From Nitrosospira multiformis ATCC 25196 (GTDB taxonomy: Bacteria; Pseudomonadota; Gammaproteobacteria; Burkholderiales; Nitrosomonadaceae): 32,000 nucleotides of DNA. Position 1 is the stretch's first letter, and every line of letters starts with the position of its first letter. The position numbers and the translations under genes were made by a program. Under the pieces are notes generated by a model. The model did not search any database. It saw only the letters and a program-made list of their open reading frames with translations, and had not been told where the DNA came from. The stretch is from the NCBI RefSeq assembly GCF_000196355.1, contig NC_007614.1:600001-632000 (forward strand), read 5' to 3'. Positions 1 through 15,859 of this stretch are shown here, one piece after another.

Positions 1-2367
1 TTCGAGGTCCAGGTTGGACAGAAGGCTGACGGGTGTGCCCTCCGGTATGGGGCCCAGATTCAACACGCCGTCATGAATCGGCAACCTCACATACCAGGGC
101 AGATAACCCTCCGGTATCAGCAGCCAGCTTCTCGCCCAGGTTCGATCGATAATGCCTGGCACTTCCTTGCCCGAGCGGGTGACATATGTGCGGTTTTCGC
201 AGCTTGTTCGTTCCTGATCTCCATAATTCTTTTCCGCATAGTAACTCCCCCCGTACAGGTCTTCCTGGTCGCAGTAGCGTTTTTCCGGCCAGAGCAATTG
301 CTCTATCCCGCTATAAAAGGATTTCATCCTGTCCTCAACGGTGCCTGAGGGATAGAATTTGCCCAAGGTGTTATTCAACAGAAAGGGCGCCGAGGACCAG
401 AGGCTCGCAAGCGAAGGCGGCCGGATATACCCGCGACCGCCATCTGGCATGGGATAGGAGCGGGGCTCCCGTGTCACGGGATGGTGAACCAGCGCACTTC
501 CGACCGAGGGTAGTTCTTTGTACGAGGTGGAAGAGAAATTATCCCAGGTATCCCCCTTGAGCGCGTTGGTTGCAAGGGAAGCGCAAATATTCGTTTCAAG
601 GAGGGTGACAGGAACGCGCAACTCGGTAGAAAGATAATTGTCAGCAAGAAAATCCTCCTTCAGTACGATCTCTTTCATCTCCTGCCTGAACTCGTCGGTC
701 TTTGTCCAGTTCCAGTACTGGTTCCAGCAACTCAGGTAATCAGGCCCGACGCAACCGTTATTGGGGAAGAATTTTACCGCTTTCTCCGGCAGCTTGCTCG
801 AGTGGCAGCCGGCGCAGTTCTCCGCAAATACTTCCTTGCCGCGTTTCAGGGTGGCCGCATCAGCGGTCAAATGATGCCGGCCTCCCGGCGCTTCCGCCAG
901 ATAATCCGGCCGGCTGGCTGCGAGGAAAAACAGCGATGTATCCAGGGTCTGGTTTTCCGTTGCCCGCCAATAGCTGGAATTCTTGTTGGCAGTGGCGATC
1001 GGGAATGGCGTGAATGGCTTGCCCCCGATGAGTGGATTGATATGCTGAAGCCATTCTTCGCTGAAGAGTCCGATATTTACGAAAACGCGGTTAAAGGCGC
1101 CGAGCGCGCCCACGGAATCAGCCCCATCCTTGAGCACCCGTGGGGTGAACACCGTACCCGATTTTTCGAAGAACCTTCTCAGCGGACTTTCGGAAGATAT
1201 TTCCCGATAATCATTAAACTGCTTATTGTTCAGCTCATCACCCGTCAGCTGCTCCTTGCCCGAGCGCAATGCATTTTTCATTCGCGCACCCAGGTTATAT
1301 ACCCCATTCATGCTGCGCGGATTATTCATGTAGTCCGTTGAAATGAGGGAAGTATCCAGGGCACCGGGGCGATTGGTGCTGAGGAACTGATAGGCGAAGC
1401 TGTTCTTGTCGGCTTCGTAGGCGAATATCCGGTCGAACCAGAAATATTGCGCCCCGGGATTGGAATTAAGGTTGGCCCACTGCGGGTTCTCCGGATCCTT
1501 CGGCGGATTGGAAGGGTTCGGGCCCACATGACAGAATCCGCACGACATCCCCACCCGGTAGGGCTTCACCAGATTTGCATCGTTGTAGTAGGACGGATCG
1601 GTATAATACCTTTCCGGGTCCCAGCGCTTTTTTGCGGCCTCATCGAAATCGGGATTGGGGAACAACCGCAGTCCTACAATCCCGCTCGCATATCCGTAGT
1701 AGGACCCGATCGGCACTGTCTTCCCCCGCGACCCGATCTTTACGCCAGGGTATTTCTCTTCATTCTCGAACGGGTCGCTTGCGCAATTCGGATCGCGCAC
1801 GTCGAGATACAGGCCGAAGCGGTCGGGGCGTCCCAATGGATTGCCCTGTGCATCCACGTTTTTCCTGAAGCACGGTTCATTGACAAGACCGAACCAGTAC
1901 CATCGGTTATCCCGGCTATATCCGGGATTTTTCATGAGGTGCGGATGATTTGAAAGCACCTTCAGGAGATCGAAGCTGCCCTGGCTGTTGATATTGAGAT
2001 GATCCCAGAACTTGTCATCTCCGCCTGTCCAGACTATCCAGTTATTCCGGCCTCTGACGATGGCTTTTACAGCCTCTTGCGGAACGCGGGAGATTCCGGG
2101 AACAAACGGCTCCAGCGTGGCGACAACCTTCTGCGGGTCTTGGCTGATCCCATAGTCCATGTCCTTGAAGTAATCTTCGTCCGCACCCGGGAAGCTCTCT
2201 GCCGATCGATTCGCGCATTGCGCCTCGTCCTTCACCGCTCCTGCCTTCGCAAACGGGCCTTCGACACATTCGTTTGCAATCCAGGGCGGGCGCTTGTAGG
2301 CGCAGCCGATAAGCAATGTAGTCAATCCCATTGCAATGAAAGTGAGGGCAACTCTTTTGGACTTCAT
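1..2367 (-). CDS. Putative di-haem c-type cytochrome lipoprotein (N-terminus complete, C-terminus beyond window edge; 789 codons visible)
   Basis: Absent from the ORF track because no stop lies inside the window. My reverse-strand translation from ATG 2367..2365 (GGAGG 8 nt upstream) stays open to base 1. The N-terminus MKSKRVALTFIAMGLTTLLIGC is a signal peptide plus lipobox. There are two CXXCH haem-c motifs: CGFCH (1528..1542) and CAGCH (802..816). The + strand ORFs over it are antisense shadows. Confidence 0.75.
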   Translation of the reverse strand, partial: MKSKRVALTFIAMGLTTLLIGCAYKRPPWIANECVEGPFAKAGAVKDEAQCANRSAESFPGADEDYFKDMDYGISQDPQKVVATLEPFVPGISRVPQEAVKAIVRGRNNWIVWTGGDDKFWDHLNINSQGSFDLLKVLSNHPHLMKNPGYSRDNRWYWFGLVNEPCFRKNVDAQGNPLGRPDRFGLYLDVRDPNCASDPFENEEKYPGVKIGSRGKTVPIGSYYGYASGIVGLRLFPNPDFDEAAKKRWDPERYYTDPSYYNDANLVKPYRVGMSCGFCHVGPNPSNPPKDPENPQWANLNSNPGAQYFWFDRIFAYEADKNSFAYQFLSTNRPGALDTSLISTDYMNNPRSMNGVYNLGARMKNALRSGKEQLTGDELNNKQFNDYREISSESPLRRFFEKSGTVFTPRVLKDGADSVGALGAFNRVFVNIGLFSEEWLQHINPLIGGKPFTPFPIATANKNSSYWRATENQTLDTSLFFLAASRPDYLAEAPGGRHHLTADAATLKRGKEVFAENCAGCHSSKLPEKAVKFFPNNGCVGPDYLSCWNQYWNWTKTDEFRQEMKEIVLKEDFLADNYLSTELRVPVTLLETNICASLATNALKGDTWDNFSSTSYKELPSVGSALVHHPVTREPRSYPMPDGGRGYIRPPSLASLWSSAPFLLNNTLGKFYPSGTVEDRMKSFYSGIEQLLWPEKRYCDQEDLYGGSYYAEKNYGDQERTSCENRTYVTRSGKEVPGIIDRTWARSWLLIPEGYLPWYVRLPIHDGVLNLGPIPEGTPVSLLSNLDLE

Positions 2368-2453
2368 GTGGCGGCCTCCAGGGAGAAATCGAATATTATT
2401 GGTTTTTGCGGGTGCCGAAAAAAGCATCGCGGCAATGAAAATGCAACCTCTTT

Positions 2454-3395
2454 TTATAACGAAGTCGAGTCGTAGACGTAACCCAGGTCTTCCGTATCCA
2501 CCAGGTCATCGTATGATTCCCCCCATGGGTCCATGATGCGGTCAGACCCGCTCAGGTTAGGTTCCGCCGATGAGTTGGCCTGTTGCCAGATATGCCACAA
2601 ACGATCCACTTCGGCATGATGGAGCCAGAAAACCGGATCCGTGGGTGATGACATCGTATTGTTCATGATGCCACCCACCCAGGCATGACCGTGATTATGG
2701 CCGGGAAGGCTCGTTCCATCCGGTCTCCGGCCCCAGCCCTCGAGCCCGTAAGTGAATTTCGTATAGTCATTTTCATTGTTCAGACCGGTATTCTGGATGG
2801 AGAACTGGTTAACGATGATATCCACATCCGTCGCGTTGGCTTTTTGCGGTGGTGAAGCATTTTTGCGTGAGGGTGGGGGTGTTCCCGTATCCGGATCGTT
2901 TGCAGGCAGAAAACCGTTCAGCCAGGCGGGGAAGGGATCTTCCCAGCGCCAATAAGGGACCGCGAGTTTTTCAGTTGCACCGGGACGGAGAACAGCGTCA
3001 ACACGCTGCAATTCCCGCTCGAACTCGACGAGATAACGGCGATGCCAGCCCAGAAAACGATAAAGGCCTGTCTCGCCCATCATGCCATGCATGTCGTGCG
3101 ACATATCCCTATGAAACTGGACCAGTTCGAGGTATTTGCCTTCCTCCACCAGACGAACAACCGCATTGCGGAATGCTTCCCGTTTTTCGGGCGAAAGGTC
3201 CGCCTGATTCTGGCGGGTGACCGGTGCGCCCGGCGGTTTGGGCGCAAAGGCGGCTGCTCCGCCCAGCAGGGGTTTTACCAGTTTCTTATGGATATCCTTA
3301 AGCAACTCCAGCTTGTCCAGGGGAAAGCCGAGAGCGATAACTTCATCGAAGGTTTTAGGGTGGAGGTGCGCGCCGGTCTTATGCGAATGGTCCAT
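2454..3395 (-). CDS. Tyrosinase-family type-3 (binuclear) copper protein
   Basis: The ORF track gives 2454..3491. I prefer the internal ATG at 3395 (AGGAG 7 nt upstream, MDHSHKTG...). CuA-type histidines lie in FHRDMSHDMHG...GWHRRY and CuB-type histidines in HNHGHAWVGG...FWLHHAEVDRLW. No Sec or Tat signal peptide is evident. Confidence 0.85.
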   Translation of the reverse strand: MDHSHKTGAHLHPKTFDEVIALGFPLDKLELLKDIHKKLVKPLLGGAAAFAPKPPGAPVTRQNQADLSPEKREAFRNAVVRLVEEGKYLELVQFHRDMSHDMHGMMGETGLYRFLGWHRRYLVEFERELQRVDAVLRPGATEKLAVPYWRWEDPFPAWLNGFLPANDPDTGTPPPSRKNASPPQKANATDVDIIVNQFSIQNTGLNNENDYTKFTYGLEGWGRRPDGTSLPGHNHGHAWVGGIMNNTMSSPTDPVFWLHHAEVDRLWHIWQQANSSAEPNLSGSDRIMDPWGESYDDLVDTEDLGYVYDSTSL

Positions 3396-3798
3396 TTTTT
3401 TGCTCCTGACAAAGGGTTCAAGGAAAACAACCGGCGCAATATGACTCTCGCTCGATGCCAATACGCCTTGCACACAATAACTATAGTACATGGCGATTGA
3501 TCCGCTCGATTTTACACAGTCCGACTATATCTGTCTGCGCTTGAGCTTGAGCTCGATCGAGAGCTCTGTGCCCAAAGGCATTTCGCTTCAAAAAGACCGA
3601 CCTGGTAGCAGCGGCTGTTGATCATTAAATACGGCAAGCGTTTATCCTGGTCTTGCAGCCAATACAATGAACCCGGTACTCGACCCGAAAGGAGGCCCGG
3701 AGCAAGAACGAGCCCATCAAGGCCATGCCCGAAAACTGGTTTCGCCAAGGCCAATGCGAGGAATCAGCAAAAGAACATACACCTGATAAAAATTCACA

Positions 3799-3826
3799 TT
3801 GACTAATTGGGGATCGGATATATGAT
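3799..3826 (+). promoter_or_regulatory. Candidate sigma70 promoter TTGACT-N16-TATGAT for the 4068.. gene(s)
   Basis: -35 TTGACT at 3799..3804, a 16-nt spacer, and -10 TATGAT at 3821..3826. This implies a leader of about 235 nt before ATG 4068. Sequence-pattern call only. Confidence 0.35.
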
Positions 3827-4067
3827 GAAATAGGTGGATTAAGCGGAGGCGCCTGAGTCTGAGTGGGCGGACCCGATTTCTGATGGCAGGATTGGTCGCT
3901 GGTCTTGTCTTTTGAAGAGCGGGGCATGTGGCGAGCAACCGGAGAAAACCTTATTCGAGTTTGGAAGAACTGCTACACCGAGTCCGGGATGCGGCAGGAG
4001 CAGGCGAATCGTGCGGTGCCGGACCCGGGTTAATGAAGAATGCGTAACAGGAGATAGGGAGGTAATA

Positions 4068-4499
4068 ATGGCTTACGATATTCAGCAGGTGATCAATATG
4101 TCGCAAGACGAGCTCGATAAATTGTTTTCTTCCGGGGAAGTGGGCGAGATACCGGACGGTGAAGCAAAGGGCACCGCTATTATCGCGCCCGGTACGCCTT
4201 ACAACTATGCGATCGCGCAGGTCATCAATTTTTTTGCCTGGCAGGGAAAGATTTTTGACGCCAAGACAAGTACGTTGAAGAACGAAATTTCACCTTTTGG
4301 CTTTCGCGCGATCATCGCCAAGGTGTACAAGGACGATAGCTGGTTCGATCACAAGCCATGCATTGTTCTCGATTATTCGGAAACCTCCACAGTGGCCCAA
4401 CGGGTCCGTGACGAAATCCGCAAGGTGGCGGACAAGCAATATCTGGGGAAGGTTTACTGGGGCAACAAGCACCTTATAGATTTCTTCCTGCAGTTCTGA
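4068..4499 (+). CDS. Conserved hypothetical protein (143 aa), function unknown
   Basis: The ORF track gives 3912..4499. The internal ATG at 4068 has a strong SD (GGAGATAGGGAGG) just upstream. The product MAYDIQQVINMSQDELDKLF...VLDYSETSTVAQRVRDEIRKV...YLGKVYW resembles a widespread uncharacterised family (recollection only, no domain name assigned). Confidence 0.6.
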   Translation: MAYDIQQVINMSQDELDKLFSSGEVGEIPDGEAKGTAIIAPGTPYNYAIAQVINFFAWQGKIFDAKTSTLKNEISPFGFRAIIAKVYKDDSWFDHKPCIVLDYSETSTVAQRVRDEIRKVADKQYLGKVYWGNKHLIDFFLQF

Positions 4500-4504
4500 G
4501 TTAT

Positions 4505-4527
4505 CCGGGTGATTCCGCCACACCCGG
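4505..4527 (+). terminator. Stem-loop directly after the 4499 stop (CCGGGTG-N9-CACCCGG), weak U tract
   Basis: A 7-bp perfect inverted repeat at 4505..4511 / 4521..4527, followed by CTTTC. It could be a weak terminator or attenuator between the 4068 gene and the 4712 operon. Confidence 0.25.
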
Positions 4528-4661
4528 CTTTCAGGCATTCGAGCTGAATGTTTGAGACTTCAAAACAGGTTTGCGGTTATCAGAACTCCGCCGTTTCACG
4601 AAGGCGTCTGTTTCACTGACGGCTCAGCTTATACATCGCAATCGGGTGACAGGAAAGCCGG

Positions 4662-4690
4662 TTGAGCAGAAAAACAAGAAGTCGTATAAA
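4662..4690 (+). promoter_or_regulatory. Candidate sigma70 promoter TTGAGC-N17-TATAAA for the 4712-8744 operon
   Basis: -35 TTGAGC at 4662..4667, a 17-nt spacer, and -10 TATAAA at 4685..4690, about 20 nt upstream of ATG 4712. Confidence 0.3.
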
Positions 4691-4711
4691 TATCGAGTGA
4701 GATAAAAAGCC

Positions 4712-6016
4712 ATGACACCTCAATCCAGCTTCATGATTGTTGCGGCTGTACGTAACGGGCAGTTGAAAGACCTGCGCGCCTTGCTGGCTTCGATGAATAA
4801 CCTGCCCGGTCATGCTGACCCCAACAATGAACTGATGCCATTTGGGAAGTTTGATCGCCTGCACTTTGCACGTTTCGTGCTCATAGAAGCAAGAACCGCG
4901 CAGGAAATCAGAGCATTCGGCGTAACGCCGAGACCGTGGCAACCCACGCTCGCCTTTCTTGGCGATATTGACGGGGATATGCAGACTTTTTTTCTGGAAC
5001 TGATCGAGCGCGCGGAGCCGGGTCTGAAAAAAATCTTTTCTCATTGCGAAGGTTTTTCCGAGGAAAATCAGGATCTCCTGGGCTGGATGAAGGCAAACAA
5101 TATAAATGCCAGCGCCACCTATGTTAACTGGATCGGGCGAACGGTCAGGCAAATCCATGAAGAAGCAGCGCTCCATCGAAGTTTGTCTGCCTATCTGCCG
5201 AAAACTGTTGACGATGTGGGCCGGGAGAATGTGCGTGCCTTGCGGCAAAAGCTGTTGTCTTATGTGGAAATGGAAAAATATAAAGGCAGGCTTACGTTAA
5301 CCCCGCCAGAACCCACGCCCCCCGAATGGAAAATGCGCAATCTTCTGCATATGATCGGGGTTCCATTGATCCTGCTTCTTCTATCTCCGCTATTACTGGT
5401 TATCGCACTTATCTTTGCACTACGTTTGAGAATGCTCGAACGCTCTGACCCTGAGCTCTTTATCCGGCCCAGCCGTGAACATTTGGCGGAGCTTACCGTG
5501 CAGGAAGATCGGGATGTCAGTAACCAGTATAGTGTGTTCGGTGACGTGAAACCTGGGGGGGTCCGCTTACTGACTTTCAAATTCGTACTCCTGGTGACCG
5601 ACTATTTGGCCCGGCACATATACAACCGTGGATTTCTCGCCCGAATAAAAACGATTCATTTTGCCCGGTGGGTGTTCATGGACAATAACCACAGGGTTTT
5701 TTTCGCCAGCAATTACGATGGCAGCCATGAAAGCTATATGGATGATTTTATCAATAAGGTCGGCTGGGGCCTCAATCTTACCTTCACCAATGGTGTCGGC
5801 TACCCTACCACCCGGTGGATCATCAAGGAAGGTGCAAACCGGGAACATGCATTCAAATATACGCAAAGGCGGCATCAAATACCCACCGAGGTTTGGTATA
5901 AGGCGTACCCGGGATTAACGGCCGTTGATCTGGCGCGAAACAGTCGTATCCGGCAAGGTGTGGAAATTCGGCAATCCAATGATGCGGAAATCCGTGAATG
6001 GCTCAGCCTGATCTGA
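4712..6016 (+). CDS. Hypothetical membrane-anchored protein, partner of the downstream DyP peroxidase
   Basis: 434-aa ORF with a central hydrophobic segment LLHMIGVPLILLLLSPLLLVIALIFALRL (about aa 211-239). An internally repeated module flanks it: LHFARFVLIE...AFLGDIDGDMQTFFLELI and IHFARWVFMD...FFASNYDGSHESYMDDFI. Its stop (6014..6016) overlaps or abuts the DyP start region. Confidence 0.7.
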   Translation: MTPQSSFMIVAAVRNGQLKDLRALLASMNNLPGHADPNNELMPFGKFDRLHFARFVLIEARTAQEIRAFGVTPRPWQPTLAFLGDIDGDMQTFFLELIERAEPGLKKIFSHCEGFSEENQDLLGWMKANNINASATYVNWIGRTVRQIHEEAALHRSLSAYLPKTVDDVGRENVRALRQKLLSYVEMEKYKGRLTLTPPEPTPPEWKMRNLLHMIGVPLILLLLSPLLLVIALIFALRLRMLERSDPELFIRPSREHLAELTVQEDRDVSNQYSVFGDVKPGGVRLLTFKFVLLVTDYLARHIYNRGFLARIKTIHFARWVFMDNNHRVFFASNYDGSHESYMDDFINKVGWGLNLTFTNGVGYPTTRWIIKEGANREHAFKYTQRRHQIPTEVWYKAYPGLTAVDLARNSRIRQGVEIRQSNDAEIREWLSLI

Positions 6017-6027
6017 GGAGCATGGAA

Positions 6028-7542
6028 ATGAAAGAATCAAGCGACTTTGAATTCGATGATCTTCAGGGGCTGCTGCGCTTTGGATATGGGAAGCTGACGG
6101 ATACCTCTTTCCTGCTGCTGAATATCGTAAATGCCGATCTGGCCAAAAAATGGCTGGAGACAGCACCCATCAGCAGCGCCGTCACGCAGGATCCTCCGCC
6201 AGAAACGGCGCTGCAGATTGCCTTTTCCGTGGAGGGTCTGCGTGTCCTCGGACTGGAGGAATCCGTTGTCGAGGGCTTTTCCGATGAGTTCATCGTGGGT
6301 ATGGCAGGAGATGAAAGCCGTTCCCGACGCCTGGGTGATATCGGCAGCAATGCGCCCCAGCAGTGGAAATGGGGAGGCAATGCGGCGCAGGTACCCCATG
6401 TCCTGTTACTGCTTTACGCCACGGAAGGAGGGATCGGCGCCTGGCAAAAAACCATAGAAGGCGAACATTTCTCCAACGCATTTGAGTTGCTGCAGGAATT
6501 ACCTACGCTTTATATCGGTGACATCGAGCCTTTCGGATTTCCGGACAGCATCAGCCAGCCAACCGTGGACTGGATGCAGCGGCAAAGCACGGATACTCAC
6601 GAGCGCGATCGTTATTCCAACTTGCTGGCTCCTGGAGAAATCGTACTTGGCTATCGCAATGAATATGGGCAGTACACTGCGCGCCCGCTCATCGATCCCC
6701 GGAAAGACAAGCTTGCAACCATGTTGCCTGGTGCCGAGGATGATCCCCCCCTAAAGGATTTCGGCCGTAATGGCACTTATCTGGTGCTTCGGCAACTGGG
6801 CCAGGATGTTCCGGGTTTTTGGCAGTTTCTTGACCAGGTGGCGGATCACATACCGGAAAAACGCGAGCAACTTGCCGCAGCGATGGTGGGCCGGGAACTC
6901 GACGGCACGCCCTTGGTTCCGGCCCACATTCCCGGCATTTCGCGCAAAGAATATGAGAACGATTTTACTTATGAGCAGGACCCAAAGGGGAACTATTGCC
7001 CCCTCGGCGCCCATGTGCGCCGGTCCAATCCGCGTACAGGCGATTTGCCCACGAGTGCATGCGGTCCCGTAGACCGGTTGATCAAAATACTGGGTTTTGG
7101 TCAAAGACCGGATGAAGATCTGGTCGCCTCTTCCCGTTTTCATCGTTTGCTGCGGCGTGGTCGCACTTATGGACCCGCCCTTGCACCGAAAGACGCTGTC
7201 GAACGCCATGCGCCTGTCGCCGAACGGGGAATACAGTTTATCTGCCTCGTGGGCAACATATCGCGGCAATTCGAATTTGTTCAGAATGCATGGACCATGA
7301 ACAGTAAGTTCGATGGCGTGCAAGATGAAAAAGATCCCATGCTGGGGAATCGCGAACCCTTGATGAGCGGGGAGAGCACTGATCATTTCAATTCTCCTGA
7401 TCCGGCCGGGCCGATGCGGACAACCTGTCATTTGCCGCAATTTGTTACCACCCTTGGGGGGGGATATTTTTTTATGCCCGGGCTGCGCGCACTCAAATAC
7501 ATTTCCGCCTTACCTGCTAACAGGACTGGTAGCCCATCATGA
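6028..7542 (+). CDS. Dyp-type (dye-decolourising) haem peroxidase
   Basis: N-terminal DDLQGLLRFGYG; GRELDGTP (catalytic-Asp region); proximal-His context CPLGAHVRRSNPR; C-terminal RRGRTYGP...GIQFICLVGNISRQFEFVQNAW. The ORF track starts at 5998. ATG 6028 lies 7 nt after GAGGAG (6015..6020). ATG 6022 or 5998 remain possible. Confidence 0.85.
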   Translation: MKESSDFEFDDLQGLLRFGYGKLTDTSFLLLNIVNADLAKKWLETAPISSAVTQDPPPETALQIAFSVEGLRVLGLEESVVEGFSDEFIVGMAGDESRSRRLGDIGSNAPQQWKWGGNAAQVPHVLLLLYATEGGIGAWQKTIEGEHFSNAFELLQELPTLYIGDIEPFGFPDSISQPTVDWMQRQSTDTHERDRYSNLLAPGEIVLGYRNEYGQYTARPLIDPRKDKLATMLPGAEDDPPLKDFGRNGTYLVLRQLGQDVPGFWQFLDQVADHIPEKREQLAAAMVGRELDGTPLVPAHIPGISRKEYENDFTYEQDPKGNYCPLGAHVRRSNPRTGDLPTSACGPVDRLIKILGFGQRPDEDLVASSRFHRLLRRGRTYGPALAPKDAVERHAPVAERGIQFICLVGNISRQFEFVQNAWTMNSKFDGVQDEKDPMLGNREPLMSGESTDHFNSPDPAGPMRTTCHLPQFVTTLGGGYFFMPGLRALKYISALPANRTGSPS

Positions 7543-8744
7543 CGAAGATAAAGAACCGGATACTGAAGGCTATTCACAATTTTCTGATTCTGCTGCTGCG
7601 GATCGAACGCCGGCTGGAACCCTGGTTCCGCGCACAGTGGAACTACCTCTTTCGCGAACCCAGCGCGAAGTTTATCCAGTATTTGATCAATCGTCGACGC
7701 AAGAACGAAGGTTTGCAGCTGGCCGAAGAAAAATTCTATCCGGATGAAGAAGAAAGCCTGAACAAGATTATCGATCTCATGATGGATCAGATGCGCGGTC
7801 GCTTCAAACCGGGAGGGTATGAGCGGGGCGGCAATACAAAAACACACGGCATTGTGCGTGCCACGGTAACCATACGGGATGATTTGCCGGAGCATTTCCG
7901 CAAGGGGATTTTTGCGTACCCGCGTACTTATCCTGCCTATGTGCGTTATTCCGGACCGGGGCCGAATGTGCCTGCGGATATCAATGATGTCGGCTTCATG
8001 AGCATGGCGGTGAAACTCATGGGTGTTCCGGGCGAAAAACTCATGAGCGAGGAGAAATTCACCCAGGATTTCATAACGACCAGTGGCGGCGCGACGTTCG
8101 TCACACCCAACACGCGGGAAAATGCCAAGCTGCAATACTGGAGCTTGGTGGACATGACGCTTTATTATTTTCTCAATCCCAAGGATTCCCACCTGCTTGA
8201 CTTCTTCATGCAGAGCTTGTGGAACGAAACTCAGTATAACCCGCTGGGACGGCGTTACTGGAGCTGCACTCCCTATCTGCTGGGGGAGGGACAAGCCATG
8301 ATGTATTCATTCGTGCCGAAAACGACAGATGTTGAAACCCATATTCCCGGCCTGCCATTTGGCACCCCGCCGTTTAATTATCTGCGGGAGAACATGATCA
8401 AGACCTTGAATGAGAAGGATGTCGAGTTTGATCTTATGATTCAGCTCCAGACGGACCCTCATCTGATGCCCATTGAAGATAGTTCGGTACGCTGGCCGGA
8501 GGAGCTTTCACCGTTTATTCCCGCTGCCACGGTTCATATCCCGAAACAGAAATTTGATTCCGATGCGCAGTTTGAGTTTGCCAAGCGGCTGAAAATGAAC
8601 CCGTGGCATTGCCTGCCTGAACACCGGCCATTAGGCAACTTGAATCGGGCGCGCTTCAGAATGTACTACGAGCTATCCAAATTCCGGCAGGAGATGAATG
8701 AAACCACACATCTGGAACCCACCGGGGATGAGATATTCGATTAG
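7539..8744 (+). CDS. Catalase-related haem protein (mini-catalase / allene-oxide-synthase-like)
   Basis: 401 aa. The start overlaps the DyP stop as ATGA (7539..7542). The distal-site motif is GGNTKTHGIVRA (His103 at 7845..7847, preceded by Thr). The C-terminal region RPLGNLNRARFRMYYELSKFR looks like a proximal Tyr context. The size is far below a canonical catalase. Confidence 0.8.
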   Translation: MTKIKNRILKAIHNFLILLLRIERRLEPWFRAQWNYLFREPSAKFIQYLINRRRKNEGLQLAEEKFYPDEEESLNKIIDLMMDQMRGRFKPGGYERGGNTKTHGIVRATVTIRDDLPEHFRKGIFAYPRTYPAYVRYSGPGPNVPADINDVGFMSMAVKLMGVPGEKLMSEEKFTQDFITTSGGATFVTPNTRENAKLQYWSLVDMTLYYFLNPKDSHLLDFFMQSLWNETQYNPLGRRYWSCTPYLLGEGQAMMYSFVPKTTDVETHIPGLPFGTPPFNYLRENMIKTLNEKDVEFDLMIQLQTDPHLMPIEDSSVRWPEELSPFIPAATVHIPKQKFDSDAQFEFAKRLKMNPWHCLPEHRPLGNLNRARFRMYYELSKFRQEMNETTHLEPTGDEIFD

Positions 8745-8828
8745 CAACCGGGTTGATCAAATACCAGTGTTCATACCGGTTTCTACAATTCTCAGGCTGC
8801 TTGGTGAAATATCCGGGCTAACTCCCAT

Positions 8829-8872
8829 TAAATAGTTTACACCGTTAGTTACACCGTTTGGAATGAATCTGG
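8829..8872 (-). repeat. Degenerate extra copy of the 3' terminus (last codons plus stop context) of the lipoxygenase gene
   Basis: TTAAATAGTTTACACCGTT/AGTTACACCGTTTGGAATGAATCTGG at 8829..8872 matches CTAAATGGTTACACCGTTCGGAATGAATCTTGG at 10090..10122 (encoding RFIPNGVTI-stop). The copy carries an internal ~12-bp tandem duplication (GTTTACACCGTTA / GTTACACCGTTT). Confidence 0.6.
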
Positions 8873-9338
8873 CAACTGGGTAAAAACCAGATATATCGGC
8901 TTTATAGCGAAGAGCAGCCTCAGCTTCCCTCGAAACTGCCCAGGCAACGCAAGACGAGGGTCACATGCCAGGCAAAGCTCAAGCGGACCAACCCCATGAA
9001 GGGTGAGCATGCACTTTATGCCGGGCCAACTGGGCCAACGGGATGAAATTCAGGATGGAATTTCAGTACGCGGACGATGGTGGATGTCTTCAGCAAGGAA
9101 GCGCTGGTAATCGGGTAGGTCTGCGTCTGCAAAGAGAACAGGCAGTTTCCACGCTAAATCGACTGGCCGCACACCTTCAGGCCTCTCCAATATCTTTTTG
9201 TCGAAGCCCAATTCTCCGGATAGTTGCGGTAGGGCGAATCAACCCCCCTCAGGTGTTGCGCCAGTTGTGGAGCGGCTACGTGGGGTAATACGCACTTGTC
9301 ATCGCCATGGATAAATGGTTCACAAAAGGAGAGCGATT

Positions 9339-9974
9339 ATGTCTAGAGAACTTGATCGTCGGGATTTCAGTACGAACAAGGTAACGCCGGTGCAAGAGGC
9401 TGAGCTGAACTCACGCGCCTCGGACGTCTCAACTCGTCTTCCTGGAGGACATCCGGTCCGAATTTCGAGCTTCGATGCAACTACCGGCAACCCCAGGGTG
9501 ATCACCTCGGACGGTGCGTCGGCAGAGAAGGGTAACTACATTCCGCGAGCCTTGGACCACGTACGGAGTGTTAGTGGGGTTTTGGGCTTGGCTGTAACCC
9601 AACCGCCCGAGTTTACGGTTGATCCCCATATCCAGGGGACCAGCAGTGGCGCCGTAATCGTTCACCTGCAGCAGCAATATAAGGGAATCCCCATCTTCCA
9701 GGCGGCGCAAGCCGTGCGCTTTAGGCCTGGCTGCGCGGCGCCCTGTGCTTGGCCTGGGAGGTGATCCTGGCGATGCCCGGCTACCAGGGTCAGTACCGCA
9801 CGATTGTGGATGCCGACAACGGCGAGGATACTGTACTGCCACCAGATGGTGCAGACAGTGGCAGCACGCGGGAATGTTTACCGTGTCGATGGAGGACCGT
9901 GGCTGGACTTCAAGTTTCTCTTCGGCAGCAGGAATCTTGCCGGAGAGGACCGCATCTACGCTGCGGTTGCCTAA
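9339..9974 (+). pseudogene. Frameshifted, truncated remnant of a secreted thermolysin-like (M4-type) metalloprotease: propeptide (FTP/PepSY-like) region only
   Basis: ATG 9339 follows AAAGGAG. An FTP-like motif SSGAVIVHLQQQYKGIPIFQAAQAVRF is present. Continuity is then lost and a PepSY-like stretch resumes in another frame (ALCLAWEVILAMPGYQGQYRTIVDADNGE). A further +1 shift gives ILYCHQMVQTVAARGNVYRVDGG, ending at TAA 9972..9974. No HEXXH catalytic domain follows. Confidence 0.6.
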
Positions 9975-10089
9975 CCACGGCTTCGGCTTCCAGCCGACGC
10001 CAAAATCGGGCGTGGCTGAAGCGCAGCCCCCTTGTATACCCCTAAATCCTACCTATAAGAAAAGAACTTCAGACGTATTTCAGGAATGA

Positions 10090-11751
10090 CTAAATGGTTA
10101 CACCGTTCGGAATGAATCTTGGATTCATGCGATCATAGGCGAAAGAACGTCTGCTATTTCTTTGGTCGATTTCCTCTTCTATTTCCTCCAGCCTGTCCCC
10201 AAACCGCTCTATCACCTCGTGTGCTTCAGAATCGAATTGCTTTAAGTTGTACTGACCGATCGAGTTGACACAAAAATTTGTCAGAAAATAGGTCCAGGTT
10301 TGCGAATAGGCGGCTCGAAAGGTCGGCAGAAACTTCAATAAGCCAGCTCCATCAATTTCAGCGTTTTTTCCAGCCGGGGGCGGCGCATAAGCTGAATGCG
10401 GCATATTGGGAACGAATCCCGGATACTTGTATTGGTTGAAGTGAATGCAGGAATGAAAAGCAGTACATAGAAAAATGATATGACCGAGAGTCTCGCTCAG
10501 CTCTTGCCTGGATTCGAATCGGGCAGGAAACCCGGGAATCCTGCCCCGATCCTGCGCACTGATATCATGTGCCCATGCCTGAGTTTCATAGTCATCAGTA
10601 ACATCCGCTTCAGATTTGTAATATAAATCGACATATTCTTTACTGAAGCTTTGAATCGCATTCCATAACAAAATGCCATCATCGCGATAGGGATAAAAAA
10701 GATCAGGATTATCGACTTCCCGCCTCGCAATATCATCGGAGAAGGCGGATTCTTTAAAATTAAAGCTTGTCATGCCATTGGCCATGCATTGCGTCATCGA
10801 GTCATAGTCTCCGGCAAATAACTCACCGTACCGGCCGGGTCGTCCCTTCCGGTCTTTCAGGAAAGTGTGCTGGTGATTGACATTGAGCGTGTGCTGAAGA
10901 TGCGGATTCAATAGAACGTAAAGCGGGTGAGATTTATAAAGCTGTCTTCGTGAAGCCATGATAATGGCTTCCATCACGTAATGAATACGGGTTGCATGGG
11001 TATACAGGATGTGATGGTTGCCATCCGCGACCTGGGCAAACATTTTTGCTGTCAGCCAGAGATTACCGTCTTTTGACGTATAGATTGGATTATCGGACCT
11101 GTCATCCTGGTATAGCTGGATGGCAACCGGCCGCAGCATGCCGTCCGGTTGCAGAAACAACACGACGATCGGAGTCGTGACATATTGTTTTTGCCCGTCG
11201 ATATAACCCGGATTTGACTGCAATACATCCAGGACTGCATAGTCCAGGACGTATATGCGTTTTTGCGCGGTGGCAGCCATATAATCGATTTCATCAATCT
11301 GCTCTTCAAAAATTTTTCGCATTTCTGCTTCCGGCAGTTTTTCCGGTAGAGGATTCTGACGGGTTACAGCGCGCAACATCACAGGATTTACTCCAATGAC
11401 GCGTTGCAGGCCAAATATCAGGTCTTGCTGGAAGCTATCCACGAGATCGGGGTTTGGAGGACTCGCCGGAAAAAAAACATAATCCCGATAACTTTCCATC
11501 GGCTTGCCGAGCAAGTAGCGTAAAAAGGTAACCGATAGGCTGGGTAAACTTGGAATCAGCCGTAAAAGATTCATTCCCCCACGGAGCCAATATCCAATGC
11601 CCGGTATCTCCCGCCATGGCAGTTTGCGCGCGACTGCAATAGTCTCGGCATACTCATAGGCGTATTGATACTCAGCTTGCCTTTGAAGAAGATAATTCTT
11701 CCGCTCTTCTTTACCTGTATTTTCTTCATTCTGCGGTAGCTTGTTCGACAC
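10090..11751 (-). CDS. Lipoxygenase (553-aa mini-LOX, catalytic domain only)
   Basis: GTG start at 11751 with AAGGAG 6 nt upstream. Motifs are WLTAKMFAQVADGNHHILYTHATRIHYVMEAII (His247-x4-His252), AFHSCIHFNQYKY (His433, His437) and a C-terminal ...RFIPNGVTI with terminal Ile. These are the classical LOX iron-ligand motifs. Confidence 0.9.
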   Translation of the reverse strand: MSNKLPQNEENTGKEERKNYLLQRQAEYQYAYEYAETIAVARKLPWREIPGIGYWLRGGMNLLRLIPSLPSLSVTFLRYLLGKPMESYRDYVFFPASPPNPDLVDSFQQDLIFGLQRVIGVNPVMLRAVTRQNPLPEKLPEAEMRKIFEEQIDEIDYMAATAQKRIYVLDYAVLDVLQSNPGYIDGQKQYVTTPIVVLFLQPDGMLRPVAIQLYQDDRSDNPIYTSKDGNLWLTAKMFAQVADGNHHILYTHATRIHYVMEAIIMASRRQLYKSHPLYVLLNPHLQHTLNVNHQHTFLKDRKGRPGRYGELFAGDYDSMTQCMANGMTSFNFKESAFSDDIARREVDNPDLFYPYRDDGILLWNAIQSFSKEYVDLYYKSEADVTDDYETQAWAHDISAQDRGRIPGFPARFESRQELSETLGHIIFLCTAFHSCIHFNQYKYPGFVPNMPHSAYAPPPAGKNAEIDGAGLLKFLPTFRAAYSQTWTYFLTNFCVNSIGQYNLKQFDSEAHEVIERFGDRLEEIEEEIDQRNSRRSFAYDRMNPRFIPNGVTI

Positions 11752-11822
11752 GAGGCACTCCTTTAAAAATAAGGTTTTCGCCTGGTTTCCATAGCCTTTC
11801 TATGTGCCCTATCTTTCACTGA

Positions 11823-13418
11823 TCACTGGACAGAGGTATTGAAGCTTGCAAGGACCGTATCGCTATCCCTTACATTACGTTTGACGATATCCGCAAGTGA
11901 GCTTGTTTCTTCAATAACGGATTGCCCAACTTTTGAAAATGTTTTTTCATTGTGTACATAAATCGATACAAGCGGGTTTGTCAGCGCATGGGTAAACGCA
12001 TCGTACCCCACCATCCGTACCATAAGGCGTCCAAGACTGAAGCCTTCATCATGATCTTCAGCAAATATGCCCACCTGCCACTCCAGATCGTCGATTCGGT
12101 CGTTATAAAGATCCTTCAGTTCCCGCTGTAGTTCGTTGTCTTCCGTCAATTCTTCGAAACTCCGTAAACGGGGCATGCTGAACGCTTCGCGATAGTCATT
12201 GAAAGGGCGCAGTCTGGCCTGCCGTCCCATTGCGATGGACCGCTCCATGACACTTCGATTATCGTCAGCAATGGGCAGCGGATAGAAAAAATAATCGTGC
12301 GTATTGTGAAGACCAATACGGCCCGCTCTTTGCATCGATGCAGCCGTTATCAACCTTCCAATGCCGTGTTGAATTACCAGCGGGGTATTGTTGCGAAACG
12401 CATCCAGCGGATAGGACTGGTTACCGACTCTGTAGCTTTCCGGGACCATGGAATGCCACCGGTACAGGAGGTTGAATTCCAGAGAGATCCAGTTGGTGCG
12501 GTACCAGCGTTGCCTTTCCGCCAGATCAGGGGATGGGTCGAGGGTAAAACCAAACTGTGTAAAACGCGAAACGTAATCTGCCAGAACCACTTTGATCAGC
12601 AGCACGACCATGATGTTTCTTGCCGTCTGAAACAGGCGTTCATCATCCCATTTTGGGTAAGCTTCTTTTAGCAGGTCACAAATCCGGTTGTGTTCACGCA
12701 GCATCACGGTATTCATTATGGTATAGCCAACCGATGAGTTGCCGTGCTCCAGTCCGGCGGCAAACACGCGTTTCAACCGTTCCTCGGGGACATTGCTAAA
12801 AACAAAATCCAGAACCTCGCGGGGATGCAGCTTCTCGAATTCTTTATCTGCGAATACCCAATTGCCCGTGGTCGTTTCCTCCACGTTAAAAAGGTAGGGA
12901 GGAAAAATTTCTCCACCGATAATCTGGGACTTCAGCTTCCCATCTTTTTTCAGCCGTAAATAATGCGTGATTTCTTCCCGCAAACCATAGATCTGGCAAA
13001 GATCGATTTCATGGTTCGATGTATTTTTCCGGCGATCGCGAAAATCCGTCCTGAGGAAACTATCGGTAAACCACTGGGCAAAGAAAGCAAACAGTATGCT
13101 TGTATCGACCGAAGGTATTTCCTTGTTCTCTTTTCTTCGCCATAAATCCACGACTCTTTGCATGTCCGGAAGATTCTGATCGCCTTCCGCCTCCGCCAGG
13201 TGGCGTCCGGTAAATGACTTGTCAGTCAACGATTGCCATGTCGTATAAGATGAAGCCAGCGAGAACGGCCGGGGCCGAGGATTGGTGGAATAGGCTTGCC
13301 AATTGATAAAAGCGTCACTGATAAACCGCCGTAACCATGTTATCCGCGAAACAATTCTGACGAGCCAGGGAAATCTGTTTGCAATCCGAAACAGGATCGG
13401 AAAAAAGAATTCATACAT
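11823..13418 (-). CDS. Cyclooxygenase-like haem peroxidase (animal haem peroxidase / PGHS-like family)
   Basis: Long colinear similarity to vertebrate COX as I recall it: FAFFAQWFTDSF, LKKDGKLKSQIIGGEIFPP, MLREHNRICDLLKEAYPKWDDERLFQTARNIMVVLLIKVVLADYV, EFNLLYRWHSMVP, RLRPFNDYREAFSMPRLRSFEELT. The gene sits 71 nt upstream of, and co-directional with, the lipoxygenase. Confidence 0.9.
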   Translation of the reverse strand: MYEFFFPILFRIANRFPWLVRIVSRITWLRRFISDAFINWQAYSTNPRPRPFSLASSYTTWQSLTDKSFTGRHLAEAEGDQNLPDMQRVVDLWRRKENKEIPSVDTSILFAFFAQWFTDSFLRTDFRDRRKNTSNHEIDLCQIYGLREEITHYLRLKKDGKLKSQIIGGEIFPPYLFNVEETTTGNWVFADKEFEKLHPREVLDFVFSNVPEERLKRVFAAGLEHGNSSVGYTIMNTVMLREHNRICDLLKEAYPKWDDERLFQTARNIMVVLLIKVVLADYVSRFTQFGFTLDPSPDLAERQRWYRTNWISLEFNLLYRWHSMVPESYRVGNQSYPLDAFRNNTPLVIQHGIGRLITAASMQRAGRIGLHNTHDYFFYPLPIADDNRSVMERSIAMGRQARLRPFNDYREAFSMPRLRSFEELTEDNELQRELKDLYNDRIDDLEWQVGIFAEDHDEGFSLGRLMVRMVGYDAFTHALTNPLVSIYVHNEKTFSKVGQSVIEETSSLADIVKRNVRDSDTVLASFNTSVQ

Positions 13419-13762: not shown

Positions 13763-15859
13763 ATGTCCCCTTCCCACCAGCCCCCGGAAAGTCAGCCCAC
13801 TGTCAAAGTTTTTGACCCGCTGGAGCTTGACCGTTCCGTGATTGCCATTCCTCTTCTGCGGCAGATGGAGGAGGAATTAAGAGGAATTGAAGCTTTTCGG
13901 GCTGCACATCCGTTCCCCGAAGATGGAGAATTCAATACGCTGATCGAATACAACAGGGAATTCGATGGAAAGCCGGAGGAGATGCGGGAGTTGGTCGTCA
14001 AGATGGCCGAAGAGGCGGCAGCGAAGGCATTGGAAGCATCGAAAAAACGAGTCGAAGAGAGCAAGGAGATAGCCCCAGCGGGAACACGGGGCACGCCGGT
14101 GCGCGGTGGCTCGACAAGGAGTCGGGCTGATATTTACGGAAATCCTTTTTTGATGGAGCAACGGCGCGACAAGGATCTCCAGGAAGCGGTCGGGAATCAG
14201 AAAATCGGACCGGTCTCGGAGGACGGCGCCTATAGCTTTGCCAGCTTGCACGCAACCATAATACGGCGAATATTAGCCGCAAACGAACGGCTGTCACAGG
14301 GTGAGGAAGCTTCAAAGAAACCACCTATCCTTCGGATCCACCCTACACGTTATGAGGTCATCATCGATATCAATCTCGAATATCCGGGTGGACGGGAAGA
14401 GGCCCGGCGCTGGATTTACCAGAATATCGAAGAGGCCAAGAACAAAGCGAAAGTGTACGACGCGGGTCAGGATATTCATCTCAAGAAGGAACAGCGCGAA
14501 AGCGGCTACATGTTCGCCTGCCTGGAAGCTCGTACCATCAAGGCGCTTATCGAACTCGATGTTGCCCAGGCAAAGGTGAAGGCGCGCGAAGCTCAGGCAA
14601 AAGTGGGGGATACGAGCCATGAAGCGAAGGCTCGTGCAGCAAAAATCAACCCGGCCAAGTTTCGCGCCATCTTCCGCATATGGCCGGATTTCGAGATTTC
14701 TGCCTCCATCACCCACTCCATCGCCACGATAAAAGCCGATGCAGCGCAGAATTCTTTTTCCGCGCGGGGCGCCGGAATCACCTGGGCGGTGATGGATTCA
14801 GGAATAAAGCAGGATCATGGGCACTTTCGCAAACACAACAATGTCGATAAAGACTCCACATGGCATAAAGACTTCACGGCGGACGGCAGCGATCCGTTCA
14901 ACGATGAGAACGGGCATGGAACGCATGTGGCAGGCATCATTGCCGGCGAATGGCGTCCGGCAGGTGCACCAGGAGGGACACAAGTGGCCGCGCCAGCGGA
15001 GGTTTCACCTCCGGCGGGCGATTCCGCCGCACCATCCCGAATTCCTGTAGCGGTTTCCCGTTATCTGAAAACGGGTTCCGAAGATGTCGAATACCAGCAG
15101 ATAAAACTCGTGGACGGCATCAGCGGGATGGCGCCGCGCTGCAAGCTGATAAGCCTGCGGGTGTTGGACGAAAACGGAAAAGGGAGTGTGAGCAATCTCA
15201 TTGCGGCCATCGCCCATGTGCAGGAGATCAACGGTTACGGCCGAAAGCTTCTGATCCACGGAGTCAACATGAGCCTGGGATATACCTTCGAGCCCGAATG
15301 GTTCGCCTGCGGCCAGAGTCCGCTCTGCGTGGAGGTTGACCGGCTGGTAAAAACCGGCGTCGTGGTCGTGGTCGCCGCAGGCAATACAGGTTACGGCACG
15401 TTGAAGGCCGCCACAGGCGCGCTCTCGGCAGGAATGGCGCTGACCATCAATGATCCCGGCAATGCGGAACTCGCCATTACAGTGGGTTCGACCCACCGCG
15501 ACATGCCGCACGTTTACGGGGTTTCCTATTTTTCCTCGAAAGGCCCGACAGGCGACGGCCGCCTCAAGCCGGACCTCGTCGCGCCCGGCGAAAAAATCAT
15601 CTCCTGCGCCACGGGTCAGTTAAAAAGCGAGGGCGCACAGGGGATCGAATGCGACTACGTCGAAACCAGCGGCACGAGTATGGCAGCTCCCCATGTCAGC
15701 GGCGCGATCGCAGCGTTTCTCTCGGTGCGCACCGAGTTCATCGGCAAGGCAGAACGTGTTAAAGAGATTTTCGTTGATACGACTACTGACCTGCGGCGCG
15801 ACCGCTACTTTCAGGGCAGTGGTCTCGTTGATCTGATGCGCGCTATTCAGTCGGTGTGA
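13763..15859 (+). CDS. Subtilisin-like serine protease (S8 family) with a ~330-aa N-terminal extension
   Basis: The Asp/His/Ser triad motifs are in canonical order: WAVMDSGI (D345), HGTHVAGIIAG (H385), GTSMAAPHVSGAIAAF (S639), plus oxyanion AAGN. SD AAGAGG lies 5 nt upstream. The N-terminus MSPSHQPPESQPT... has no signal peptide. The N-terminal third is charged and coiled-coil-like. Confidence 0.85.
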   Translation: MSPSHQPPESQPTVKVFDPLELDRSVIAIPLLRQMEEELRGIEAFRAAHPFPEDGEFNTLIEYNREFDGKPEEMRELVVKMAEEAAAKALEASKKRVEESKEIAPAGTRGTPVRGGSTRSRADIYGNPFLMEQRRDKDLQEAVGNQKIGPVSEDGAYSFASLHATIIRRILAANERLSQGEEASKKPPILRIHPTRYEVIIDINLEYPGGREEARRWIYQNIEEAKNKAKVYDAGQDIHLKKEQRESGYMFACLEARTIKALIELDVAQAKVKAREAQAKVGDTSHEAKARAAKINPAKFRAIFRIWPDFEISASITHSIATIKADAAQNSFSARGAGITWAVMDSGIKQDHGHFRKHNNVDKDSTWHKDFTADGSDPFNDENGHGTHVAGIIAGEWRPAGAPGGTQVAAPAEVSPPAGDSAAPSRIPVAVSRYLKTGSEDVEYQQIKLVDGISGMAPRCKLISLRVLDENGKGSVSNLIAAIAHVQEINGYGRKLLIHGVNMSLGYTFEPEWFACGQSPLCVEVDRLVKTGVVVVVAAGNTGYGTLKAATGALSAGMALTINDPGNAELAITVGSTHRDMPHVYGVSYFSSKGPTGDGRLKPDLVAPGEKIISCATGQLKSEGAQGIECDYVETSGTSMAAPHVSGAIAAFLSVRTEFIGKAERVKEIFVDTTTDLRRDRYFQGSGLVDLMRAIQSV

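Follow-up and report, generated by a model that had tools for sequence, protein, structure and literature searches.

Do the genes for six redox enzymes that lie side by side in Nitrosospira multiformis ATCC 25196 (family Nitrosomonadaceae) belong to one system, or are they neighbours by chance? We analysed 32,000 nucleotides of its genome (NCBI RefSeq assembly GCF_000196355.1, contig NC_007614.1, positions 600,001 to 632,000, forward strand), hereafter the window. An earlier note on this DNA had described, in its first 13,418 nucleotides, a di-haem cytochrome c, a tyrosinase, a DyP haem peroxidase, a catalase-related haemoprotein, a lipoxygenase (LOX) and a cyclooxygenase (COX)-like protein, and had proposed that together they form a fatty-acid oxygenation pathway of eukaryotic type. 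All six enzymes were confirmed at their positions by Pfam, PDB and profile matches, and their catalytic residues are intact. The cluster is composite, yet it is not a chance adjacency: it is most likely a lipid-oxygenation island built of three modules that recur together in Nitrosomonadaceae.

Gene content of the cluster

Genes were called from a listing of open reading frames with their translations, and families were assigned with Pfam, NCBIfam and phmmer or profile searches against the PDB. The window as a whole showed about 95–100% identity to Nitrosospira multiformis. The encoded proteins were 92–100% identical to those of Nitrosospira multiformis strains (loci L011–L013 and L023), 80–96% identical to those of Nitrosovibrio and 69–91% identical to those of Nitrosomonas europaea. 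The features of the cluster, in window coordinates, are:

1..2367, minus strand: di-haem c-type cytochrome lipoprotein, partial (lipobox LLIGC; haem motifs CGFCH and CAGCH)
2454..3491, minus strand: type-3 copper tyrosinase (PF00264, E 1.4e-35; NCBIfam MelC2-like, 3.6e-31)
4068..4499, plus strand: 143-aa protein, first gene of a cassette and conserved at its head
4712..6016, plus strand: 434-aa protein with a central hydrophobic helix (no Pfam match)
5998..7542, plus strand: DyP haem peroxidase, class C/D-type (PDB 8re2, E 1.8e-38)
7539..8744, plus strand: catalase-related haemoprotein, 401 aa (family profile, 3e4w, 1e-18)
8848..10119, no strand: 1.25-kb insert with a decayed protease-propeptide gene at 9315..9764 (23-nt direct repeat)
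10090..11751, minus strand: mini-lipoxygenase, 553 aa (PF00305, E 1.1e-57)
11823..13418, minus strand: COX-family haem dioxygenase, 531 aa (PF03098, E 6e-43)

Every gene of the earlier list was found, but that list had missed a conserved seventh gene (4068..4499, plus strand) and the 1.25-kb insert. The 434-aa gene overlaps the DyP gene by 19 nt and the DyP gene overlaps the catalase-related gene by 4 nt (ATGA), while 71 nt separate the COX-like gene from LOX and 86 nt the tyrosinase gene from the cytochrome gene. These junctions are as described before; the three transcription units drawn from them follow from strand and spacing only, because a promoter and terminator scan of the window performed no better than on shuffled sequence. 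An Rfam scan of the window returned no RNA families.

Linkage of the modules across genomes

The occurrence of the cluster was followed through relatives of its LOX in one-genome-per-species GTDB contigs, which gave 21 loci with a LOX at least 65% identical and 42 loci with a more distant one. The COX-like gene stood immediately upstream of LOX in 18 of the 21 close loci, which came from Nitrosospira, Nitrosovibrio, six Nitrosomonas lineages, a Kordiimonadaceae metagenome-assembled genome (MAG), Methylomonas and other MAGs. Among the 42 distant loci the pairing was found in none, and metagenome contigs kept it in 10 of 13 close loci. In ammonia oxidisers and in some methanotrophs, the COX-like and LOX genes thus make up a true unit of two genes that is conserved.

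The cassette, together with the cytochrome gene, lay at most 10 kb from LOX in 11 loci (10 GTDB species genomes and one betaproteobacterial MAG), apparently all of them Nitrosomonadaceae. Two arrangements were seen. The cassette of Nitrosospira and Nitrosovibrio converges on LOX, with the cytochrome gene beyond it; in N. europaea, N. communis and N. marina the order is LOX, then (in N. europaea) an α-dioxygenase-like gene, a GMC oxidase and the cytochrome, and last the cassette. Together with the conservation of the COX-like and LOX pair, these 11 loci support the earlier suggestion that the clustering is not accidental.

The island of N. europaea runs from tyrosinase through COX-like and LOX to an α-dioxygenase (α-DOX)-like gene, followed by the GMC oxidase and cytochrome c genes on the other strand and then the cassette, so that ten redox genes lie within ~17 kb. 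The linkage of LOX-, COX- and tyrosinase-like genes in this species, which the earlier note had mentioned, is therefore correct. The two islands are orthologous (identities of 79% for LOX, 82% for COX-like, 74% for the cytochrome, 80% for the 434-aa protein, 69% for DyP and 91% for the catalase-related protein). They differ in that the cassette of Nitrosospira abuts LOX, its tyrosinase lies by the cytochrome, and the window holds no α-DOX-like gene.

The LOX, COX-like and tyrosinase genes of N. europaea are already known; they were reportedly noted by Porta and Rocha-Sosa in 2001 and in the 2003 genome paper. A literature search on N. europaea NE1238–NE1246 and on the N. multiformis lipoxygenase found nothing usable. 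To judge from the locus-tag order, NE1243 presumably lies one or two genes from the tyrosinase, COX and LOX genes. In an irradiation transcriptome of N. europaea, NE1243 (hypothetical protein) was the sole gene differentially expressed in both culture formats (PMC11024918). The N. europaea LOX is also listed in PMC11941309.

The COX-like protein and its mini-lipoxygenase partner

The best PDB match of the COX-like protein was PGHS-2 (E 5e-69, near full length), far above α-dioxygenases or myeloperoxidase, with the alignment beginning in the membrane-binding region of COX. The catalytic Tyr385 and proximal His388 are kept (FNLLYRWH versus FNTLYHWH in PGHS-2) and are invariant in 20 orthologues, and Gln203 is kept in the PGHS-2 alignment. 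The distal His207 is replaced by Asp (AQWFTDSF versus AQHFTHQF), again invariantly in 20 orthologues, and an HMMER alignment to 3krk, read by eye, showed Arg120 changed to Gln, Tyr355 to Phe and Ser530 to Ala. The idea that this protein is a cyclooxygenase or makes endoperoxides finds no support, since these four residues are lacking and the motifs of a bacterial 10S-dioxygenase (10S-DOX) are present instead.

The sole characterised prokaryotic relative is the linoleate 10S-DOX of Nostoc punctiforme, a 542-aa protein with the distal motif 'F143tdsF' and a terminal ARxIGxDAFxQA (PMC13049297). The window motifs FTDSF, VLADYVSRFTQF and VRMVGYDAFTHA agree with the 10S-DOX motifs printed there. The likeness, judged from published motifs and length, covers FTDSF, the FxxxY context of the catalytic Tyr, a central Y-V/I-xx-(I/F)-T and the terminal R-x-(I/V)-G-x-D-A-F-x-(Q/H)-A, with 531 aa in the window protein against 542 in that of Nostoc. 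The Nostoc enzyme pairs with a catalase-related 10S-hydroperoxide lyase encoded by a separate gene, according to Brash et al. (J Biol Chem 2014) as reported in PMC13049297, and a catalase-superfamily haemoprotein encoded by a separate gene is likewise found nearby in the window. The systems differ in that the operon partner of the window COX-like gene is the mini-LOX gene rather than the catalase-related gene; the latter lies on the other strand, where it is coupled to DyP, and encodes Asn where the distal His would stand. Because FTDSF, VRMVGYDAFTHA and the 531-aa length match the Nostoc signature, we file the COX-like protein with the 10S-DOX type, as a putative hydroperoxide-forming dioxygenase and not a true cyclooxygenase.

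Metagenomic relatives of the COX-like protein (43–67% identity) included single open reading frames with a C-terminal cytochrome P450, and one was fused to a RoxA-like cytochrome:

10S-DOX-like–P450 fusions: L089:4747-7704, L092:9392-12325, L093:596-3925, L139:9977-12886, L145:74-3037 and L146:8570-11497
10S-DOX-like–RoxA-like di-haem cytochrome c fusion: L124:4952-8323

The neighbours of the L139 fusion are typically bacterial (Ku, ATP-dependent ligase, cyclase-AAA). The dioxygenase–cytochrome P450 design was treated as fungal in a 2026 review (PMC13049297), and it seems to exist in bacteria too.

The LOX matched 55 PDB LOX chains, the best being the Cyanothece mini-LOX 5med (1.7e-74, full length). 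Its iron ligands His251, His256, His432 and His436 do not vary within the close clade, and the C-terminus reads ...NGVTI, ending in Ile. The 553-aa protein lacks the N-terminal PLAT/β-barrel domain, and its alignment with eukaryotic LOX starts at about residue 85–105. It resembles CspLOX2 of Cyanothece sp. PCC 8801 (5med) in full-length alignment, the missing PLAT domain and conserved iron ligands, and differs from it in having His rather than Asn as the fourth iron ligand and a COX-family dioxygenase as genomic partner.

A cassette shared by Beta-, Gamma- and Deltaproteobacteria

The four-gene cassette (143-aa protein, 434-aa membrane protein, DyP and catalase-related protein) was found in Beta-, Gamma- and Deltaproteobacteria. 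Across N. europaea, Nitrosovibrio, Methylococcales, Chromatiales and a Desulfococcus MAG, identities were 67–86% for the 434-aa protein, 66–80% for DyP and 79–96% for the catalase-related protein. Metagenomic database homologues of the catalase-related protein numbered 6227 and those of the 434-aa protein 5947, the latter all annotated as hypothetical. The closest cassette homologues with a named source came, with few exceptions, from ammonia oxidisers and from methanotrophs of the Gammaproteobacteria (Methylomonas, Methyloglobulus, Crenothrix, Methylococcaceae). Identities of 79–84% lie above the expectation between classes and therefore suggest recent exchange between these two groups.

The 143-aa gene has a GGAG/GGGAGG ribosome-binding site upstream of its start, and its product headed the cassette in eight of nine sampled contexts (44–99% identity), being missing from the Chromatiales locus; across the N. 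europaea, Nitrosovibrio, Methylococcales and Desulfococcus MAG loci the identity was 44–82%. It had no Pfam, PDB or PADLOC match. The 434-aa protein has one long hydrophobic helix between two soluble halves. Its AlphaFold model was weak (pLDDT 58), with a ferredoxin-like N-domain and a best Foldseek hit at E 0.058, and the possibility that it is a diverged DyP was ruled out (hhalign probability 0.2%). The DyP protein, which has no signal peptide, matched 8re2 (1.8e-38), DyP2 4g2c (6e-25), 5c2i and TIGR01413 (1.3e-15), and its GxxD Asp183, proximal His339 and RRGR Arg cluster (R383–R389) are invariant in six orthologues.

Outside the island the cassette keeps a characteristic company. Five independent contexts (L005/6, L007/8, L075, L076 and L077) showed a co-directional six-gene array that includes the cassette and is headed by a 953–975-aa An_peroxidase protein and a 315–352-aa mini-catalase. 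The An_peroxidase protein is closest to plant fatty-acid α-dioxygenases (rice α-DOX, 1.2e-56; YRxH kept), and the mini-catalase is a paralogue of the window catalase-related protein, 35% identical to it, with Gln at the distal-His position. The cassette of L074 is headed by a co-directional homologue of the window di-haem cytochrome (61% identical), and L009/10 carries the three-gene core alone (434-aa protein, DyP and catalase-related protein). Altogether, a gene of a fatty-acid-dioxygenase family lay at most 10 kb from the cassette in seven of the nine sampled contexts, and directly ahead of it, as the α-DOX-like gene with mini-catalase, in five.

Natural fusions join the same families. DyP is fused to a catalase-related domain in P0121 (49% and 65% identical to the window proteins), P0125, P0138 and P0188, An_peroxidase to a catalase-related domain in P0256, and a RoxA-like di-haem cytochrome to a catalase-related domain in P0197, P0210, P0248 and P0253. 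The cassette is widespread and horizontally mobile. No description of it was found in the searchable literature, which does not prove that it is new.

The coral allene oxide synthase model does not fit the catalase-related protein

As a single sequence, the catalase-related protein matched nothing in Pfam or the PDB. A profile of 56 diverse family members matched 3e4w, the 33-kDa MAP-2744c (1e-18), followed by true catalases from ~2e-9 and the coral allene oxide synthase (cAOS) 1u5u (7.8e-8); 45 of the 56 members match PF00199. The fold assignment comes from these profile matches, the AlphaFold model being unusable (pLDDT 45). The proximal Arg372 and Tyr376 are present and are conserved in 54 of 56 members. 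The distal-His position is occupied by Asn99 in the window protein (R96-G-G-N99, ERGGNTKTHG) and in the DyP-linked clade, and by His in 48 of 56 members. The protein is 79–100% identical across Nitrosomonadaceae, Methylococcales, Chromatiales and the Desulfococcus MAG. It is a member of the catalase-related haemoprotein superfamily and of a distinct clade there, and its nearest relative with a solved structure is MAP-2744c.

The pairing of LOX with a catalase-related allene oxide synthase, known from coral (Plexaura) and Anabaena, had been offered as the model for this locus. The likeness to cAOS-LOX (1u5u, 3dy5) is that one locus holds a LOX and a catalase-related, Tyr-liganded haemoprotein. 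The analogy fails because the distal His (His67 of cAOS, in an R-x-x-H motif) is Asn and because the catalase-related gene is neither fused to LOX nor in an operon with it; the model is therefore not supported. The catalase-related gene is coupled to DyP on the strand opposite LOX and occurs mostly without LOX, its product is nearest to MAP-2744c, and the window LOX is PLAT-less. The searchable literature likewise appears to lack a description of the Asn-type catalase-related protein and of the modular way in which the cassette is attached to various oxygenases.

Cytochrome c and tyrosinase

The cytochrome gene runs off the start of the window, so that the C-terminus of the protein lies outside it. 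Relatives are ~880 aa long, and CGFCH and CAGCH stand at positions 276 and 517 of a full-length orthologue. The match to the NCBIfam di-haem CCP model (6.6e-6, 25.6 bits) was under the cut-off of 150, and that to the RoxA-like cytochrome domain was marginal (hhalign probability 72%, E 3e-5). The family profile searched against the PDB matched in the haem-motif region only, and neither CCP nor RoxA was recovered. The protein may be a distant, divergent relative of the CCP/MauG/RoxA di-haem enzymes, an assignment that is marginal.

The cytochrome gene adjoins the cassette in the Nitrosomonadaceae loci. The oleate-diol synthase PA2077/PA2078 of Pseudomonas aeruginosa consists of di-haem CCP-family fatty-acid dioxygenases (PMC4496055). 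Like the rubber oxygenase RoxA, they are c-type cytochromes with two haems and oxygenate double bonds of lipids or isoprenoids; RoxA-like domains occur in fusions with members of the catalase-related family and with a 10S-DOX-like protein. The window cytochrome differs from them in its marginal similarity, its lipoprotein anchor and the ~880-aa length of its relatives. A GMC-family oxidoreductase gene was observed directly downstream of the cytochrome gene in N. europaea and Nitrosovibrio (L002:1568-3592, L004:1050-3020). Such a gene probably also lies just past the start of this window, and its product is a possible source of H2O2 for the peroxidases.

The tyrosinase likely starts at the Met at 3395, which gives a protein of 313 aa, and its CuA and CuB His motifs (FHRDMSHDMH...WH and HNHGH...HH) were read from the sequence. 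It stands beside the cytochrome only in the N. multiformis loci L011–L013. The tyrosinase directly upstream of COX in the Nitrosomonas lineage is a different one, 30% identical and carrying a PPC domain. The tyrosinase and cytochrome grouping, which the earlier note had counted as a part of the cluster, is thus particular to the N. multiformis lineage.

Composition, origin and an insertion scar

The GC content was 0.470 for LOX and 0.484 for the COX-like gene, against 0.546 for the remaining normal-GC part of the window, and so the impression that the pair is AT-richer than its neighbours was borne out. The pair lies 6–7 GC points under its flanks in Nitrosospira and Nitrosovibrio and matches its surroundings in N. 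europaea and Methylomonas. The near relatives of both proteins are all bacterial (ammonia-oxidising bacteria, methanotrophs, Beggiatoa/Thiotrichaceae, cyanobacteria and myxobacteria), and the structure closest to the LOX is a cyanobacterial mini-LOX. A direct eukaryotic source was rejected on these grounds. Because the near relatives are bacterial and the GC contrast is found only in some hosts, transfer between bacteria is favoured over a recent origin in eukaryotes. The pair may have come from an ammonia oxidiser of lower GC content, or nitrifiers and methanotrophs may have exchanged it.

Between the catalase-related gene and LOX, a 23-nt direct repeat (8848–8870 and 10097–10119), which is the duplicated 3' end of LOX, brackets the 1.25-kb insert. 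The pseudogene within it is a fragment of a thermolysin/fungalysin-type FTP propeptide (Pfam). Nitrosovibrio Nv6 lacks the insert, its gap between the catalase-related gene and LOX being 168 bp, and the junction is therefore recombinationally active.

A proposed role in lipid-hydroperoxide chemistry

From the gene identities, residues, junctions, linkage and fusions described above, we infer substrates, products and a flow from one module to the next. Module A (COX-like to mini-LOX, 13418 to 10090, minus strand) would supply fatty-acid hydroperoxides: the COX-like protein as a tyrosyl-radical haem dioxygenase able to act on oleate and linoleate, the mini-LOX on fatty acids with a cis,cis-pentadiene. 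Module B (the cassette, 4068 to 8744, plus strand) would consume or rearrange organic hydroperoxides at the membrane. DyP would take them as oxidant. As analogues, the Nostoc 10S-hydroperoxide lyase and M. avium MAP-2744c suggest that the Tyr-liganded catalase-related protein may isomerise or cleave them. Having Asn instead of His in the distal pocket, this protein is expected to differ in its chemistry from the coral allene oxide synthase. Module C (tyrosinase to cytochrome lipoprotein) would be a periplasm-facing oxidative pair, its cytochrome in some genomes replacing the α-dioxygenase that normally heads the cassette.

The likely substrates would be unsaturated fatty acids, either exogenous or from the membrane. 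Plant roots are a source of free linoleic and linolenic acids, which belong to the known biological nitrification inhibitors, and this makes a role in detoxification plausible. A shared lipid-hydroperoxide theme is suggested by three observations, namely the repeated re-association of the modules after rearrangement, the α-DOX link outside Nitrosomonadaceae and the fusions. A function in oxylipin or lipid-hydroperoxide metabolism is a plausible prediction with good support from context. Of the pathway first proposed, the hydroperoxide theme gains support from the α-DOX links and the fusions, and the allene oxide synthase and cyclooxygenase analogies are not supported. That the COX-like/LOX pair makes fatty-acid hydroperoxides which the DyP/catalase cassette then processes is the explanation that we favour, tentatively and at slightly less than an even chance.

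Several observations weigh against it. The pair stands without a nearby cassette in eight of its 18 genome loci (L015–L017, L019, L021, L024, L028 and L030), and none of the cassette contexts outside Nitrosomonadaceae contains a LOX (L005, L007, L009 and L074–L077). The link between COX-LOX and the cassette therefore comes from one family, and the loci are phylogenetically non-independent. Distant 10S-DOX-like genes (40–55% identity) had a catalase-family neighbour in 1 of 67 cases. The catalase-related protein lacks the distal His of the characterised cAOS, and its turnover of hydroperoxides is therefore not assured. The 434-aa and 143-aa proteins had no family, structure or defence-model match, and both AlphaFold models were poor (pLDDT 58 for the 434-aa protein and 45 for the catalase-related protein). 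Ammonia oxidisers, moreover, are not known to make polyunsaturated fatty acids that could serve the LOX as substrate.

In one alternative, the modules are independent and were collected in a recombination-prone region. The COX-like/LOX pair would make oxylipins, the cassette would be a general device against peroxides or oxidative stress with no tie to lipids, the tyrosinase and cytochrome would do something else, and the linkage in Nitrosomonadaceae would be ancestral and non-functional. The modules are indeed found apart in many genomes, and the cassette elsewhere is flanked by transposases or unrelated genes. In the window itself, an insertion scar and a pseudogene separate the catalase-related gene from LOX, and LOX/COX differ from the cassette in GC content and strand. 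Against this, the order was reshuffled between Nitrosomonas and Nitrosospira and the modules still lie at most 10 kb apart; outside Nitrosomonadaceae the cassette is joined to a fatty-acid-dioxygenase homologue in five of seven contexts; and domain fusions link the families. We regard independence of the modules as unlikely.

Oxidation of phenolic or aromatic compounds (humic or lignin-derived phenols, plant nitrification inhibitors) by a set resembling that of ligninolytic fungi, in which tyrosinase, DyP and haem peroxidases would receive H2O2 from the GMC oxidase of relatives, appears improbable. The Nitrosomonas and Nitrosospira lineages alike have a tyrosinase tied to the island, a GMC oxidoreductase gene stands beside the cytochrome gene in N. 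europaea and Nitrosovibrio, and among solved structures DyP comes closest to C/D enzymes of the dye and lignin type. However, none of the four proteins DyP, LOX, COX-like and catalase-related carries a signal peptide, and they are therefore not placed for extracellular attack on polymers. The characterised LOX, 10S-DOX- and α-DOX-type enzymes are all fatty-acid specific, and the commonest partners of the cassette are the α-DOX-like protein and mini-catalase, not tyrosinase or GMC oxidase.

Antagonism or defence, with the cassette (with or without a dioxygenase) yielding reactive lipid electrophiles or radicals against competitors, grazers or phages, is very improbable: the cassette is mobile and patchy, a subtilase and a hydrolase flank the COX-like gene, and neighbours elsewhere include a Tle1-like phospholipase, a DUF900 hydrolase, peptidoglycan-binding proteases, an eCIS core protein and a TIR protein, but these neighbours vary by genome, secretion or immunity genes are not consistently linked, and PADLOC defence models matched none of the eight proteins.

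The favoured explanation, hydroperoxide supply by the pair and processing by the cassette, can be widened. The cassette may be a mobile 'back end' for lipid-hydroperoxide chemistry that accepts interchangeable 'front-end' oxygenases and has spread preferentially among bacteria that have extensive internal membranes and copper monooxygenases. The front ends would be an α-DOX-like protein with mini-catalase, a 10S-DOX-like protein with mini-LOX, or a large di-haem cytochrome c. In ammonia oxidisers and type I methanotrophs it would then serve in repair, detoxification or signalling by way of oxidised fatty acids, whether exogenous or from the membrane. We consider this wider proposal possible, if rather unlikely as a whole.

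Neighbouring genes and other features of the window

Beyond the COX-like gene, and divergent from it, lie the following genes:

13763..17214, plus strand: subtilase (S8) and DUF900-like α/β-hydrolase (Pfam)

Their position next to the COX-like gene is conserved in Nitrosospira and Nitrosovibrio only, and their membership of the island is uncertain. The DUF900-like α/β-hydrolase at 15898–17214 flanks the island in Nitrosospira. A similar hydrolase (weak, E 1e-3) follows the six-gene operon in Methylococcales (L005:11355-14313), and a Tle1-like phospholipase comes next. These enzymes may be lipases that free fatty-acid substrates.

A low-GC island (0.40–0.46) was also observed at 25400–31700 of the window, with these genes:

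25455–26666: response-regulator/phosphorylase-superfamily protein
26663–27151: second receiver-domain protein
27117–30680: 1187-aa protein, no Pfam match
30830–31699: IS3-type transposase

Implications for nitrifying bacteria

To our knowledge, only a handful of enzymes have been characterised in bacterial oxylipin biochemistry. Two of the four cassette proteins have no recognisable family, and the Asn distal pocket of the catalase-related protein represents possible new haem chemistry. If the back-end proposal is true, the cassette, together with the dioxygenase–P450 and dioxygenase–RoxA-like fusions, would point to a modular bacterial oxylipin system with a diversity comparable to that of fungi and plants. 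Ammonia oxidisers control nitrogen loss from soils and wastewater, and a fatty-acid oxygenase island would offer nitrifiers a testable route to tolerate or sense unsaturated lipids.

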